Shown here: piece by piece, positions 1-4,502 of the stretch | How the letters are laid out: every line of letters starts with the position of its first letter | Position numbering within the stretch: position 1 is the first letter of the stretch | IMG/VR virus record: IMGVR_UViG_2541047931_000010 | DNA length: 4,502 nucleotides | Direction: 5' to 3' (one strand) | Source: a virus | Taxonomy: Duplodnaviria > Heunggongvirae > Uroviricota > Caudoviricetes | The notes under the pieces: generated by a model | The model's input: only the letters and a program-made list of their open reading frames with translations | Database searches by the model: none | What the model was told of the DNA's origin: nothing | Translations under genes and position numbers: made by a program

Positions 1-558
1 ATGAATACAGCTATAACTTTTTCTAACGAGTCACCAAAAGTCTTTTTCAAAGATGGTCGCCTGGTTACCACCTCTCAAGCTGTTGCCGACTACTTCGATA
101 AACAACATAAACACGTTTTAGCTAAGATTGACACACTCGACTGCTCTCCCGAATTTACATCAGCCAACTTTTCGGCCGATGTTCAGACTGTCGAAATTGG
201 CAACGGCGCAGAACGTGAATCACGATGCTACCTGATCACAAAAGACGGCTTCATGTTCCTCGTAATGGGATTTACTGGCAAAAAAGCAGCCAGACTAAAA
301 GAAGCTTACATTGAAAAATTTAACGCAATGGAAGAAGAACTCCACAAACGTCCTCCTGCAGCACAAAACTCCCCCGACCCAAATAATGGATGCGCATTAC
401 TGATCCACTTCGATAAACACGGTCAGGTCGAGTTCACAGAAAAAGTCCCCGCCGATGCGATGGTATGCACGCTGGAACGGTTTAAATTTTATCTGGAGCA
501 ACATGGGTGGATCGTTGCCCGTAAAGAACAATTGGTGGAAAGGTTGATGCGGTTTTAA
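1..558 (+). CDS. Rha-family phage regulatory protein (antirepressor-like)
   Basis: 185-aa ORF starting at the ATG at position 1 and ending at TAA 556-558. The N-terminal segment GRLVTTSQAVADYFDKQHKHVLAKID fits the Rha-domain signature as I remember it (v.TsSr.iAe.fgKrH.nVLr.I). A GC hairpin plus T-run follows directly. The ORF may continue upstream of the window. Confidence 0.75.
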   Translation: MNTAITFSNESPKVFFKDGRLVTTSQAVADYFDKQHKHVLAKIDTLDCSPEFTSANFSADVQTVEIGNGAERESRCYLITKDGFMFLVMGFTGKKAARLKEAYIEKFNAMEEELHKRPPAAQNSPDPNNGCALLIHFDKHGQVEFTEKVPADAMVCTLERFKFYLEQHGWIVARKEQLVERLMRF

Positions 559-684: not shown

Positions 685-855
685 TCAATAAATCCCATCA
701 TTGCGATCAACCTCATCCTTAACCATTGATGCGAGCAGTTCTTCCAGTTTCTGCGCTGACAGCTTTACCTGGTGATCTTCAGCATCTTCCCGGGCTATTG
801 TGGTTCGCGCAGTGGCTGATTTTGCTGACATCACCTCAGGGGGCAGACGGACCAT
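685..855 (-). CDS. Small hypothetical protein (about 56 aa), doubtful
   Basis: Taken from the 685..966 minus-strand ORF in the track, using the internal ATG at 853-855 (MVRLPPEVMSAKSAT...NDGIY). GGAGG lies 10 nt upstream. The longer form starts at a TTG inside the hairpin and tfa stop region and is not credible. No recognisable motif, so this may be a spurious ORF. Confidence 0.3.
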   Translation of the reverse strand: MVRLPPEVMSAKSATARTTIAREDAEDHQVKLSAQKLEELLASMVKDEVDRNDGIY

Positions 856-919
856 TGAACCATGGCCTCCGGAACAAATAAGGGCAAAAATAACAACCAC
901 TATCGAAAGCTCACAAACT

Positions 920-1089
920 AACCGCAGCACGTTCCTGCATACGACGTGTCTGCGGCATAATCCCAATGATTACTCCCTGACAGGATTTGCAGGCCACTCA
1001 ATATCAGGTGCAGTTGATGTATCAACACGATTCAACAATACCCGATATTTATTCCATGCCTCCAGCAACGATCTTTCTTCCTCCGTTGC
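920..1089. repeat. Direct repeat copy 1 (hairpin plus 3' end of tfa)
   Basis: About 170 bp matching 1970..2138 in the same orientation, roughly 85-90% identical by eye, with one 1-nt indel in the hairpin arm. On the minus strand it encodes the conserved Tfa C-terminus. Confidence 0.85.
922..955 (-). terminator. Hairpin directly downstream of tfa fragment copy 1 (terminator-like)
   Basis: Arms ccgcagcacg (922-931) and cgtgtctgcgg (945-955) pair with a 1-nt bulge. It lies 14 nt beyond the tfa stop on the minus strand and is followed on that strand by a U-rich stretch (uuaguuugug). No clean U-tract, so terminator function is uncertain. Confidence 0.35.
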
Positions 1090-1203
1090 GATTTCCAGAT
1101 CTACAGCATCCTGCAGTGGCGCAATATACTCACTGAATTCCTGGATGTAGAACTGTGTGGTGACGGTCTTCCAGCCATTCGGCTCCTGCTGTATCGAAGC
1201 ATA
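970..1203 (-). pseudogene. Tail-fibre assembly protein (Tfa) 3' fragment, C-terminal ~77 codons, no start codon
   Basis: Minus-strand translation gives [77 protein letters not shown]. This matches the conserved lambda/Mu-type Tfa C-terminus (...[43 protein letters not shown]...) as I recall it. The frame is closed upstream by TAG (1204-1206) and contains no ATG or GTG. Confidence 0.7.
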
Positions 1204-1239: not shown

Positions 1240-1247
1240 TTAACCCC

Positions 1248-1295
1248 TTGTAATTCATCGCCATAATTGATTTAATTCACAAATAAAACTATAAC
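1248..1295 (+). promoter_or_regulatory. Candidate sigma70 promoter(s) for the methyltransferase gene
   Basis: AT-rich leader with two possible arrangements: TTGTAA (1248-1253), 17-bp spacer, TTTAAT (1271-1276); or TTGATT (1267-1272), 17-bp spacer, TATAAC (1290-1295). Judged by eye against consensus only. Confidence 0.3.
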
Positions 1296-1964
1296 ATGGT
1301 GAAATCAATGAAAAAAAACACAGATGATGGGGCTAAAATTTACACACCACTTACCCTAAAGCTTTATGACTGGTGGGTTTTGGGAGTATCAAATCGGCTT
1401 GCATGGGGATGTCCTACAAAGGAACACCTTCTTCCACACTTTCTGGAACATTTAGGTAACAACCATCTGGATATTGGTGTTGGAACTGGGTTTTACCTTA
1501 CTCACGTACCTGAGAGTAGTCTGATATCTTTAATGGATTTGAACGAAGCTAGCCTGAACGCGGCATCTACAAGGGCTGGGGAATCAAAAATTAAACATAA
1601 AATTAGCCATGATGTTTTTGAACCTTATCCCGCGGCGTTACATGGTCAATTTGATTCCATTTCCATGTTTTACCTTCTTCACTGCCTGCCTGGAAATATA
1701 TCTACAAAAAGCTGTGTAATACGCAATGCGGCGCAGGCCTTAACTGACGATGGAACTCTATACGGAGCCACAATTCTTGGCGATGGAGTTGTGCACAATA
1801 GCTTCGGTCAAAAACTGATGCGCATTTACAATCAGAAAGGCATCTTTTCAAACACAAAAGATTCCGAAGAAGGCTTAACACATATACTCTCAGAGCATTT
1901 CGAGAATGTTAAAACCAAGGTTCAAGGTACTGTAGTAATGTTTTCCGCTTCAGGGAAAAAATAG
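1296..1964 (+). CDS. ybcY: Class I SAM-dependent methyltransferase (Rossmann fold, not a DNA methyltransferase), probable prophage cargo gene
   Basis: 222-aa ORF. Motif I LDIGVGTG, acidic post-I residue (LMDLNE), motif II FDSISMFYLLHCL and motif III LTDDGTLYG. No DPPY/NPPY or PCQ/ENV motifs. GC is clearly lower than the flanks (about 36% in the first 66 nt). The start may instead be the ATG at 1308, which has GGTGA 5 nt upstream. The gene symbol is tentative: it rests only on remembered synteny with DLP12 tfaD-ybcY-tfaX, not on sequence comparison. Confidence 0.72.
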   Translation: MVKSMKKNTDDGAKIYTPLTLKLYDWWVLGVSNRLAWGCPTKEHLLPHFLEHLGNNHLDIGVGTGFYLTHVPESSLISLMDLNEASLNAASTRAGESKIKHKISHDVFEPYPAALHGQFDSISMFYLLHCLPGNISTKSCVIRNAAQALTDDGTLYGATILGDGVVHNSFGQKLMRIYNQKGIFSNTKDSEEGLTHILSEHFENVKTKVQGTVVMFSASGKK

Positions 1965-1969
1965 CATCC

Positions 1970-2138
1970 AACCGCAGCACGTTCTTGCTTAAGACGTGCT
2001 GCGGCATAATCCCAATGATTACTCCCTGACAGGGTTCGTAGGCCACTCAATATCAGGTGCAGTTGATGTATCAACACGGTTCAGCAACACCCGATACTTC
2101 TTCCAGGCTTCCAGCAACGGAGTTTCTTCCTCCGTTGC
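1970..2138. repeat. Direct repeat copy 2 (hairpin plus 3' end of tfa)
   Basis: Matches 920..1089 in the same orientation. Similarity fades by about 2147, where the membrane-protein gene ends. Confidence 0.85.
1972..2004 (-). terminator. Hairpin directly downstream of tfa fragment copy 2 (terminator-like)
   Basis: Perfect 11-bp stem ccgcagcacgt (1972-1982) / acgtgctgcgg (1994-2004) with an 11-nt loop. It lies 14 nt beyond the tfa stop on the minus strand, and a U6 run follows about 10 nt later on that strand. On the plus strand it starts 8 nt after the methyltransferase stop but has no U-tract. Confidence 0.4.
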
Positions 2139-2147
2139 ATATACAGC
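2019..2147 (-). pseudogene. Tail-fibre assembly protein (Tfa) 3' fragment, about 42 codons, no start codon
   Basis: Minus-strand translation [42 protein letters not shown] is the conserved Tfa C-terminus. The frame is closed upstream by TGA at 2148-2150 and has no start codon. Confidence 0.68.
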
Positions 2148-2157
2148 TCACCTTTTT

Positions 2158-2451
2158 TCACCCACGATTAACCAACAGCCAGACCAGCAGACACGCCACC
2201 ACCGGCACAGCAAAATCCATCAGGCTTGCCACATCCCACGCGCGCGGATCAAAACCGCCCCACCACGGCATATTCATTCGCTTGCCATGCACGAACATTT
2301 CAATCCAGCGATATTCTGCCTGGGTGTGTTCACGCGCAATGAAGAACGTACAACCGGCTATCGCCCCGTAAGCCCAGTTTCCGGTAAAAAGACCAGCCAG
2401 TACCTGCACCGCCACGGCACAAAGCGCATGAAGTATCGACGTGATATCCAT
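2158..2451 (-). CDS. Small hypothetical membrane protein (97 aa, 2-3 predicted transmembrane segments)
   Basis: ATG at 2449-2451 with AAGGA about 6 nt upstream and only 9 nt after the stop of the preceding gene. Hydrophobic stretches at residues 5-38 and 74-94. Ends at TGA 2158-2160. No family recognised. Confidence 0.6.
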   Translation of the reverse strand: MDITSILHALCAVAVQVLAGLFTGNWAYGAIAGCTFFIAREHTQAEYRWIEMFVHGKRMNMPWWGGFDPRAWDVASLMDFAVPVVACLLVWLLVNRG

Positions 2452-2460
2452 CTGCTATCC

Positions 2461-2739
2461 TTAAAACCACTCCCTGAGCGGGCGCTCTGGTGTAACCACC
2501 CACTCACGGAACACGGAATCATCAAATCCATCGTCAAGAAGACGGATATTAACAAAGTACCCTTCGTTTCGCGTGTATTCTGGTTCTCCGTCATCAGAAA
2601 CATCTGTCTCCCTGAACGTAAAACCAATCTCATCAACCAGAACGGCATTCTGCAGCTCTTCGTCCTCTTCCCAGTTAAGTTTCCTGAGAAATGCCCTGAA
2701 ATCTGCTTTATCACTGAAACGCAACGTGAAATCTCTCAC
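2461..2739 (-). CDS. Small acidic hypothetical protein (92 aa), translationally coupled to the tail-fibre gene
   Basis: GTG start at 2737-2739 overlaps the tail-fibre TGA stop in a GTGA arrangement. A strong GGAGG sits 7 nt upstream. There are 24 Asp+Glu against 12 Arg+Lys and no internal Met. No family recognised. Confidence 0.62.
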   Translation of the reverse strand: MRDFTLRFSDKADFRAFLRKLNWEEDEELQNAVLVDEIGFTFRETDVSDDGEPEYTRNEGYFVNIRLLDDGFDDSVFREWVVTPERPLREWF

Positions 2740-4502
2740 TCCACAACCTCCCCAAGCTGCGCATCTGTTAGCTCTTTATGCCAGAGACGAAAATTCCTCA
2801 CATGCCCAAATAAATGGCGTAATCCTGCTGTAGTTTGTCCACCAATGCGAATGATTGCTGTACTCCGGATATATTCCCATGTGGTTTTTGTTTCGCTGGA
2901 TATACGCCCGTTACTTACTGCACATGTAGACTGATCTGACTTTACACGCATCCCCATAACCATTTTTTTCAACGATGCGTTTTCGTTAACACGCCTATTT
3001 GATCCACCAATATCGCAATAAGGAAATCCGTCTGGCCCATCTGCCGAAGATCCGAAGCCAAGAATAATAGCCGCTCCGGTTTGATGACCGCCGGTATCAA
3101 AAACACGTGGCGCTGCATTTGGCGTTTTATACCAGTTCTTATGTACCTCACAAAGAACCGTAAAAGGAAGATTATAAAGATTATTCTTAATCGGAACTGT
3201 AACCATATCGCTTGCGCGCGTCGCCGCCGTCGTTCCTGATATAATAAAAGATGATACACACGAACCATCCTCAACCTGAGGGGTGGCCAGATAAATATAG
3301 TCACCAGATTCAACGACACCACCTTTTTTTGGTGCGTATTGTATTGCAGAGGTTATGTAAGTTTCTTTACTTGCTTGAATCGTTGCCTCTACAAAAATCC
3401 AGCCCGTAGCTTCATCTTTGCTAACTCGTGCGGTGAGCCTGTCGGCAGCTACACCGGTGATTTCAACCAATAAAGACCGCGTATTAACAATGGCATATCC
3501 AAGATTAGATGAAGCGCTGCCATCGAAGGCTTCAAACCTGATCCTTAACAGGAGTTCCAAATCCGTTTTAAATCTGCACGATGTCGTCACACACTTATTA
3601 TCGCCTGATACATCGACAGCCCCCGAGGTTGAAACTACTGCCATATTAAGGGTTGTACTTTGCCCAATTAATGATTCATTACAAACAAACTTTCCATAAG
3701 TAAAACCAAAACTATCAGTTCCAACCTCAGCGACATTCATATTTGCAGATTTACCCCAAGAAGCTGGAGTTGCTGAATTCAACATGTAGTTGGTTCGCTG
3801 ACCTTCAATCAATAAACCTTCTTTTTCAAATCGTGGCTCATTAATTTCCGCCGTTTTCAGTTCGCCAGATTTGTTGATATATGTTGCCGTTGATGCGCGA
3901 CTGAAATTAACCTGTTTATCACTGGCAACCTGAACCACATTATCACCAATCATCACTTTTTTATAACCCGGAGAATAGCCCGTAATCATATCCAGCGAAT
4001 CATTAAAGGGTATCCACACATCCGGCAGCGGCTGTAAAACATATCTGTACGGCTCTGCTGTCTGGTTTGCGTATTCTCTGGCAGCATCTTCACTTGCTTT
4101 TGCTGCCGTCTGGCTTGCTGCCGATGCTTTCGCCGAGTTCGCCGCCGCTGTTTCGCTCACCTTTGCGTTGGCTTCACTGTCTTTGGCATTCGTCTCACTG
4201 GTTTTCGCTGCCGTCTGGCTGGATTTTGCGTTTTTTTCGCTGGCCTTTGTGGCTGTCTCGCTATTTTTCGCGCTGGTTTCTGATTTTTTGGCTGCTGTCG
4301 CGGAGTTTGCCGATGCAGTCTGCGAGGCCGCTGCCGCCTGTGCGCTGTTAGCTGCATTCGTTTCTGAGGTTTTCGCCGCATTCTTCGATGAGGCTGCTGC
4401 CGTTTCGGATTTCTTTGCCGCCGCTGCACTCTGTGATGACGCTCCGGCATGACGTGCCACTTCATTCACCATCAGCTCAAAACGGCGCAGTGCCTCCGGA
4501 CG
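2736..4502 (-). CDS. Phage side tail fibre protein (Stf-like), N-terminus lies beyond the window
   Basis: The frame is open to the window edge; 2736..4502 translates to 588 aa. The first residues RPEALRRFELMVNEVARHA resemble the lambdoid Stf anchor region (PEVLRRLELMVEEVAR, from memory). Ala/Ser/Thr-rich SETNA/KNA-type fibre repeats follow. The C-terminal part ends with ...RHLFGHVRNFRLWHKELTDAQL, which resembles the terminal motif of LamG/ConA-like lectin domains. Confidence 0.9.
   Translation of the reverse strand, partial: RPEALRRFELMVNEVARHAGASSQSAAAAKKSETAAASSKNAAKTSETNAANSAQAAAASQTASANSATAAKKSETSAKNSETATKASEKNAKSSQTAAKTSETNAKDSEANAKVSETAAANSAKASAASQTAAKASEDAAREYANQTAEPYRYVLQPLPDVWIPFNDSLDMITGYSPGYKKVMIGDNVVQVASDKQVNFSRASTATYINKSGELKTAEINEPRFEKEGLLIEGQRTNYMLNSATPASWGKSANMNVAEVGTDSFGFTYGKFVCNESLIGQSTTLNMAVVSTSGAVDVSGDNKCVTTSCRFKTDLELLLRIRFEAFDGSASSNLGYAIVNTRSLLVEITGVAADRLTARVSKDEATGWIFVEATIQASKETYITSAIQYAPKKGGVVESGDYIYLATPQVEDGSCVSSFIISGTTAATRASDMVTVPIKNNLYNLPFTVLCEVHKNWYKTPNAAPRVFDTGGHQTGAAIILGFGSSADGPDGFPYCDIGGSNRRVNENASLKKMVMGMRVKSDQSTCAVSNGRISSETKTTWEYIRSTAIIRIGGQTTAGLRHLFGHVRNFRLWHKELTDAQLGEVVE
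4098..4439 (-). repeat. Imperfect tandem repeats encoding the tail-fibre repeat region
   Basis: Repeated nucleotide units such as ttttgctgccgtctggcttgctgcc and ttttcgctgccgtctggctgg encode repeated A-K-x-S-E-T-N-A-type peptides. Every frame on both strands is open here, which explains the spurious ORFs in the track. Confidence 0.6.

Follow-up and report, generated by a model that had tools for sequence, protein, structure and literature searches.

The ybcY locus

The window, by which we mean the whole stretch of 4,502 nucleotides analysed from the Caudoviricetes virus record IMGVR_UViG_2541047931_000010, carries a 222-codon open reading frame (ORF) that in the ORF listing runs from ATG to stop at exactly 1296–1964 on the plus strand, where a first-pass annotation made from the DNA letters had placed a methyltransferase gene. 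The feature is a known and already annotated gene, the intact form of one named ybcY in Escherichia coli K-12, and its product is an uncharacterised class I S-adenosylmethionine (SAM)-dependent methyltransferase. New here are a probable correction of the start codon to ATG 1308, the exact lesion in K-12, a bracket of Tfa repeats plus hairpin around the gene, evidence of purifying selection, and the recurrence of the ybcY family in virulence-associated mobile DNA. The features of the locus are the following.

1296–1964, plus strand: class I SAM-dependent methyltransferase, intact ybcY allele (ORF listing, RefSeq annotation with 222 aa, Pfam, identical DNA in E. coli MS7163)
1308–1964, plus strand: probable true coding sequence of 218 aa, beginning at the second ATG, Met5 of the ORF (alignment, PHROG, E. 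coli S88, Shine-Dalgarno sequence)
1267–1295, plus strand: putative σ70 promoter, TTGATT (1267–1272), 17-nt spacer, TATAAC (1290–1295) (K-12 genomic SELEX listing)
1240–1267, plus strand: alternative promoter-like site, TTAACC-16-CATAAT (consensus scan, 9 of 12 matches)
1309–1310, plus strand: site of the 2-bp deletion in the K-12 pseudogene, which takes out the G of ATG 1308 together with an A from the A8 run (alignment)
970–1158, minus strand: left tfa remnant, C-terminal 62 codons and stop, divergent from the methyltransferase gene (translation, BEC1 annotation)
2019–2147, minus strand: right tfa remnant, C-terminal 42 codons and stop, convergent with the methyltransferase gene (translation, S88 and BEC1 annotation)
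920–1089, no strand assigned: direct repeat, left copy, tfa 3' end and hairpin (repeat families D1 and D4)
1970–2138, no strand assigned: direct repeat, right copy (repeat families D1 and D4)
1972–2004, no strand assigned: hairpin with an 11-bp stem, CCGCAGCACGT...ACGTGCTGCGG (RNA fold −23.0 kcal/mol on the plus and −28.5 kcal/mol on the minus strand)

The ORF product scores above the Pfam gathering cut-offs for Methyltransf_12 (37.6, cut-off 30), Methyltransf_23 (28.8, cut-off 27), Methyltransf_25 (27.7, cut-off 27) and Methyltransf_11 (24.6, cut-off 21.2), and it aligns end to end with PHROG 2132, a family of unknown function. The ybcY family comprises about 1300 clusters of homologues at 50% identity, and the 90% cluster of the ORF protein itself has 6589 full-length member sequences. 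Together with a ratio of non-synonymous to synonymous substitution rates (dN/dS) of about 0.1, the Pfam scores, the full PHROG match and the homologous clusters establish that this is not a chance ORF. The gene had also been described as AT-rich. Its GC content is 41.0%, with 35.9% at third codon positions (GC3), against 46.1% for the whole window and 47–55% for the adjacent tfa remnants and orf97, so that the description holds, to a modest degree, because the GC3 of the tail-fibre gene stf is itself just 39%.

Promoter, start codon and hairpin

A promoter of its own had been proposed for the gene, and the proposal is supported by data from K-12. In genomic SELEX (systematic evolution of ligands by exponential enrichment) the ybcY-tfaX spacer of K-12 binds the RpoD holoenzyme and contains an H-NS site too, and the best-match constitutive RpoD promoter listed for ybcY is TTGATT-17-TATAAC (PMC3946193). 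Both hexamers are unchanged in the window and across all four aligned loci, among which only base 1262, in the spacer of the −10-proximal alternative promoter, varies.

The real start of the gene is probably ATG 1308, giving a protein of 218 aa, rather than ATG 1296. Met5 is the first residue in 30 of 31 aligned homologues, and the PHROG 2132 profile, with 218 positions, covers residues 1–218 counted from ATG 1308. The second gene copy of E. coli S88 is intact apart from having ATA where the window has ATG 1296. The sequence GGTGA at 1298–1302 is found 5 nt upstream of ATG 1308, and no Shine-Dalgarno sequence precedes ATG 1296 in the window. The transcript predicted from the position of the −10 hexamer should begin near 1302, which falls after ATG 1296.

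The hairpin lies between the stop codon of the methyltransferase gene (1962–1964) and that of the right tfa remnant (2019–2021). Being located between convergent stop codons it is placed like a bidirectional terminator, and it probably is one. A strong hairpin follows each copy of the tfa repeat.

Flanking tfa remnants and repeats

Both remnants translate to the canonical Tfa C-terminus, from LLEAW(N/K) to (A/T)NPVRE and a stop. The right remnant is annotated as a partial tail fibre assembly protein in E. coli S88 and BEC1-S17-ESBL-09 (BEC1), and the left as a partial tfa in BEC1, in agreement with the earlier view that the gene sits between tfa remnants. The direct repeats that bracket it have a spacing of 1049–1050 bp, and consist of D1 (140 nt, 91% identical) and D4 (29 nt, 90% identical). 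Each of the two remnants is a C-terminal piece, which speaks against a simple insertion into a single tfa gene; the bracket fits repeated homologous recombination within the sequence for the conserved Tfa C-terminus, and the gene may move among prophages by this route.

Distribution, the K-12 pseudogene and selection

The 761 bases round the gene are present at an identity of at least 95% in 3836 of 5426 complete E. coli genomes (71%), with up to four copies per genome, and the DNA of the gene region is 100% identical in E. coli MS7163. The product name given by RefSeq in E. coli genomes is "class I SAM-dependent methyltransferase" (e.g. WP_023148666.1). Intact copies of the gene are found in 15 phage records, among them Nesevirus ev243, 2G7b, Kati, Turner and several ECOR prophage isolates. 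In the phages the gene is placed between the tail-fibre module and int, with ompT and either an alpha/beta hydrolase gene or an appY-like regulator as fellow cargo. The arrangement in the window is a rare one, since only one of the 5426 genomes, BEC1, covers at least 80% of it, with 91% identity; here too Rha is joined to the tfa/methyltransferase block, in a prophage adjoining trpA-yciEFG-ompW'. Elsewhere ompT, appY or an alpha/beta hydrolase gene takes the place of Rha on the promoter side. One record labelled as coming from another genus, the Bacillus thuringiensis CT-43 plasmid HM037272.1, contains this E. coli gene at 53447–54094 with 99.1% protein identity, suggesting contamination or misassembly of the record.

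The first-pass annotation had likened the gene to ybcY, a pseudogene of K-12 lying between tfaD and tfaX in prophage DLP12, and alignment shows this to be correct. The locus of K-12 BW25113 is 98.9% identical to the window over 1230–1990 (761 nt), the feature is flagged "frameshifted", and it is situated in DLP12 between two partial tfa genes, adjoining appY and ompT. This identity, and the partial tfa genes that flank the gene on either side in the window and in K-12 alike, make the two genes orthologues. They have in common the gene, the upstream promoter region and the tfa bracketing (tfaX and tfaD in K-12), whereas the promoter-side neighbour is a Rha-family gene in the window and appY and ompT in K-12. 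In an alignment of the window, BW25113, O157 and S88 copy 2 the sole frame-breaking difference in K-12 is a 2-bp deletion in ATGAAAAAAAAC: K-12 has lost a GA at ATG 1308 which the window allele retains, and the frame here is intact. If translation starts at ATG 1308, the deletion destroys the real start codon besides shifting the frame. The gene ybcY is among the most widespread cargo genes of E. coli prophages; it is intact nearly everywhere but is broken in K-12, the laboratory strain in which most functional genetics has been carried out, which may be the reason why it has no assigned function.

The broken copy in K-12, the tfa fragments and other debris around the gene, and the location of the promoter within an H-NS-bound spacer might indicate a decaying, functionless remnant kept by a near-fixed defective prophage. 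This is contradicted by the evidence for purifying selection. Where dS is unsaturated, pairwise dN/dS against Enterobacter and Klebsiella homologues is 0.09–0.16, i.e. about 0.1 across genera. E. coli S88 has two copies of the gene (924–1592 and 6282–6950), about 5 kb apart and each near an ompT paralogue, which differ by 6 synonymous and 2 non-synonymous substitutions. From these low ratios, and from the mostly synonymous differences in S88, the gene is maintained as a protein. The frame is unbroken in every locus examined other than K-12, functional phages included, and the number of full-length sequences in the 90% cluster (see above) points the same way. We therefore reject the remnant, which we regard as highly improbable.

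Methyltransferase motifs and fold

The claim that the product has a complete class I SAM motif set is upheld by a family alignment of 32 homologues, 56–90% identical, in which motifs I–IV are present. D59, G61, G63 and G65 of motif I (HLDIGVGTG, where LDIGVGTG is 58–65), D81 (LMDLN) and D106 (HDVF) are invariant in the 32 homologues, 31 of which also share D120 in the motif IV region (FDS). D81 and D106 align with the equivalent residues of UbiG and of juvenile hormone acid O-methyltransferase (JHAMT). The pair H129-C130 after motif IV is likewise invariant, and so is an N-terminal family signature made up of Y16, P18, Y24, D25, W26, W27, N33, W37 and C39. The AlphaFold2 model, a confident one (predicted local distance difference test score, pLDDT, 90.6; predicted template modelling score, pTM, 0.87), has seven strands and two N-terminal helices, and in the model these helices would form a lid. 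Motif I, the acidic residues of strand 2 and motif III, the seven-stranded sheet and the Pfam scores all place the protein among the class I methyltransferases.

Orphan methyltransferases are common in phages, and an enzyme of this kind might shield phage DNA from restriction by methylating it; in PADLOC there is also a weak match to the methyltransferase mad2 of the MADS system (E 0.0033, 14.3 bits), the only match obtained and not enough to make the gene part of a defence system. However, a regular-expression search of the ORF product found no [DNS]PP[YFW] and no PC[QN] motif, and a single ENV at residue 203 is not conserved across the family, so that the earlier statement that motifs of DNA methyltransferases are missing stands. 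There is no target-recognition domain, no DNA-methylase match in Pfam or NCBIfam, and chromosomal stand-alone homologues have no restriction partners. With the motifs absent the DNA-methyltransferase reading was rejected, and its probability is close to nil.

Relatives and substrate class

The profile and structure searches that had been suggested for finding the nearest characterised enzyme gave small-molecule methyltransferases with 10–21% identity as the nearest neighbours. A search of the PDB with the 32-sequence profile returned JHAMT (E 3e-5), UbiG (E 2e-3), the ToxA protein XrdM (E 0.016) and PmtA (E 0.046), and these best sequence relatives all act on hydrophobic small molecules or lipids. 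Neither the single sequence nor the profile found a close characterised relative among solved structures, i.e. none better than the 3e-5 of JHAMT. NCBIfam gave only far-sub-threshold matches, to CpaM (17.4 bits, cut-off 180) and RquA (16.9 bits, cut-off 175), and no housekeeping equivalog. A search of BFVD was not informative. The first-pass annotation had allowed that the gene might turn out to be dissimilar to ybcY and to methyltransferase profiles, to lack key SAM-binding residues, or to encode a well-characterised housekeeping enzyme. The match to ybcY, the SAM residues and the profiles all hold, and no housekeeping methyltransferase was found with a better value than the E of about 1e-3 between E. 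coli UbiG and the ORF protein.

The homologues are monocistronic and stand alone in all loci examined (Enterobacter, Salmonella, Klebsiella plasmids, Erwinia, Rhodococcus equi, Hahella and an acidobacterium), and no conserved partner gene was found there, which fits an enzyme acting alone on a diffusible substrate. Genes of redox or detoxification type, for Zn-ADH, DJ-1, azoreductase-like proteins, DoxX and alpha/beta hydrolases, recur loosely near homologues, but the association is too weak and was not used. The only informative domain fusion is to a P450, in one distant family member (P0242, 2315–4474, on a short contig) that is followed by a second P450 gene; it hints at natural-product tailoring in that lineage. 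A fusion to RCC1 in a fungal metagenome-assembled genome may be a gene-model artefact.

Two other classes of substrate were considered. The enzyme could methylate a macromolecule (rRNA, tRNA or protein), for example in the host translation apparatus or in a surface protein of phage or host. The AlphaFold model has no RNA-binding or substrate-recognition domain beyond the core of about 218 aa, no RNA or protein methyltransferase model of NCBIfam was matched, rRNA methyltransferases appear in the PDB profile search at E 1.5 or worse, and the best sequence relatives are small-molecule enzymes; we consider this class unlikely. A PmtA-like phospholipid N-methyltransferase, which would convert phosphatidylethanolamine towards phosphatidylcholine in the membrane of the lysogen as a host-interaction trait, is suggested by the top Foldseek match, the bacterial phosphatidylethanolamine N-methyltransferase 8ys9 (of comparable length, 207 aa, template modelling (TM) score 0.61–0.65, E 3e-12), by the aromatic, amphipathic N-terminal helix and basic isoelectric points of the ybcY family, and by its recurrence in virulence loci (see below). 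The fold match to 8ys9 is no better than that to many other class I methyltransferases, and the E of 0.046 for PmtA in the profile search does not amount to a significant sequence relationship, leaving this activity very improbable.

Proposed role of the gene

We consider it likely that intact ybcY is a "moron" unit of lambda-like E. coli prophages encoding a small-molecule SAM methyltransferase; for the small-molecule part taken by itself our confidence is lower, and the balance tips only somewhat in its favour. The structural marks of a moron are present: a promoter (PMC3946193), the hairpin 1972–2004, a position between tail-fibre module and int in ev243 and Kati, and a GC content of 41% against 46–55% in the surroundings. 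Its description as acquired cargo accords with its low GC and independent transcription unit, with its occurrence in the genomes of free phages and with the stand-alone, non-phage homologues in other genera.

According to this proposal ybcY would be a self-contained transcription unit at the distal end of the tail-fibre module, starting from its own σ70 promoter, with an H-NS-bound spacer in K-12, and ending at the strong hairpin that it shares with the convergent tfa remnant. Given its own promoter and a terminating hairpin, expression of the gene from the prophage should not depend on the late operon, and is probably weak or confined to some conditions. The product should be a cytoplasmic protein of about 218 aa with a single class I Rossmann-fold domain, in which motif I (HLDIGVGTG), Asp81 and Asp106 are the most likely SAM-binding elements. 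The methyl group would pass to O, N or S of a metabolite or xenobiotic that is of low molecular weight, is probably hydrophobic and is held under the aromatic N-terminal lid (Y16, Y24, D25, W26, W27 and W37), with His129-Cys130 beside the acceptor, and a benefit to the lysogen may follow. DNA is probably not methylated by the enzyme.

Several observations weigh against this proposal. The pI of most family members is 8–9.4, mildly basic, and would suit a nucleic-acid or membrane substrate too. The evidence for the promoter comes from binding in vitro with K-12 DNA and not from the mapping of a transcription start, and promoter-like sites were no more numerous in the scan than in shuffled sequence, which makes TTAACC-16-CATAAT weak evidence. 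The terminator scan made no call at the hairpin 1972–2004, because the plus strand has no T-run. No expression or phenotype data for the gene were found in the literature searched, and no functional study in the literature on ybcY, pVAPA_0470 or prophage methyltransferase morons. No characterised member of the ybcY family was found in NCBIfam or among cluster names, those of ten distant family clusters all being generic, and the substrate class consequently depends on remote similarity of 10–21% identity.

Other genes in the window

The remaining genes are the following.

1–558, plus strand: Rha-family regulator gene (ORF listing, family libraries)
2158–2451, minus strand: small gene, 97 aa, PHROG 1443, unknown function, product hydrophobic and membrane protein-like, 55% GC
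2461–2739, minus strand: small gene, 92 aa, PHROG 1361, unknown function
2736–4472, minus strand: tail-fibre gene (ORF listing)

Every tail gene in the window (the tail-fibre gene, the two small ORFs and the tfa fragments) is on the minus strand. The methyltransferase gene had been said to lie on the opposite strand; relative to the tail-fibre genes it does, but the Rha gene is likewise on the plus strand.

The 97-aa and 92-aa genes separate the tail-fibre gene from the right tfa remnant and occupy the place expected for a tfa gene. The stop codon of the former (2158–2160) is 10 nt from the start of the right remnant (2147), placing a mosaic joint near 2150. The N-terminal part of the tail fibre (4075–4384, minus strand) contains repeats with a period of 21/42 nt, encoding a heptad-like region rich in Ala, Ser, Lys, Glu and Thr KTSETNAKDSEANAKVSETAA of the kind usual in the "prophage tail fibre N-terminal domain", and the C-terminal part matches NCBIfam GTA_spike_fiber. 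A degenerate tail-fibre/DUF4376-like fragment is found at 685–966 (minus strand) and 559–919, with a match of PHROG 1141/7703 to residues 34–93. It sits between the left tfa remnant and Rha. There are three layers of tail-fibre debris before the methyltransferase gene. A 45-codon antisense ORF (1909–2046, minus strand) overlaps the 3' end of the methyltransferase gene, the hairpin and, out of frame, the tfa remnant. RefSeq names it "hypothetical protein" (WP_001309429.1) or "nucleocapsid protein" (WP_071592174.1), and it is almost certainly a spurious gene call.

Comparison with known systems

Among solved structures the best sequence match is JHAMT (PDB 7EBS/7EC0), with 21% identity and alignment of motifs I–IV. 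Its catalytic His114/115 aligns with H129 after motif IV in the window protein, but many Methyltransf_11/12 enzymes have a histidine here. In JHAMT the catalytic His hydrogen-bonds and anchors the carboxylate of the substrate (PMC8526772), and it is followed by a Trp where the ybcY family has a Cys. The match covers the core alone (profile positions 41–147), and the catalytic Gln14 of JHAMT falls outside it, in the unaligned N-terminal region. JHAMT is also 50–70 residues longer, and the window protein is probably no member of the JHAMT family. Small methyltransferases of similar size, about 200–230 aa, that act on natural products or xenobiotics are MM_2633 (3dtn), BelI (9fce), DhpI (3ou2), UbiG (4kdc), TmtA (5egp) and Rv0560c (7bgg). 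They are just 10–18% identical to the window protein and do not have the N-terminal signature YxP-x5-YDWWV-x3-SN-x2-AW-x-C of the ybcY family, so that no substrate can be transferred from them by homology.

Closer relatives are found in virulence-associated mobile DNA. About 600 Klebsiella plasmid records have homologues with 64–67% identity. The one at 7010–7663 of NZ_CP047676.1, a hypervirulence plasmid of K. pneumoniae from liver abscess, is 64.7% identical with 35% GC and is directly beside rmpA-rmpD-rmpC, peg-344 and iroN, there being two family copies per plasmid. BAH65943.1, next to rmpA on a pK2044/pLVPK-type plasmid, is also a member of the ybcY family (64.7% identity) and like ybcY is a stand-alone, AT-rich gene in mobile DNA. 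The Klebsiella homologue is listed among liver-abscess-associated genes in two genomic association studies (PMC5126061, PMC9372168), an association that linkage to rmpA and iro would explain. Plasmids of Erwinia amylovora of the pEA29 type have a 53%-identical copy next to a choline transporter gene. Most of the enterobacterial homologues measured are AT-rich, with 35–41% GC (47% in the Salmonella copy), which suggests a shared foreign origin and targeting by H-NS.

More distant is pVAPA_0470 of R. equi, with 31.6% identity, a family member that likewise is a stand-alone, AT-rich gene in mobile DNA; it is located in the vap pathogenicity island and is transcribed divergently from the virR operon. 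It is conserved across the vap island types of R. equi (PMC5434932). The homology in pVAPA1037 (about 5971–6717) reaches 34 codons upstream of the annotated start. Unlike those of ybcY its SAM motifs are degenerate, with GARSA in place of GVGTG, C for D81 and S for D106, so that the protein may be a pseudoenzyme devoid of catalytic activity.

Taken together, the E. coli cargo by ompT, the Klebsiella rmpADC plasmids, the R. equi vap island and Erwinia pEA29 could be read as cases of a mobile, xenogeneically silenced, stand-alone methyltransferase that is repeatedly recruited into virulence loci, where it would act on a hydrophobic substrate derived from the host or the envelope and serve as a factor of host adaptation or resistance. 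We regard this wider reading as quite unlikely. If it is true, the substrate might be a lipid head group or an antimicrobial metabolite, and the gene would be no mere passenger. Identification of the substrate could explain a recurrent but ignored passenger of the virulence loci of Klebsiella and R. equi.

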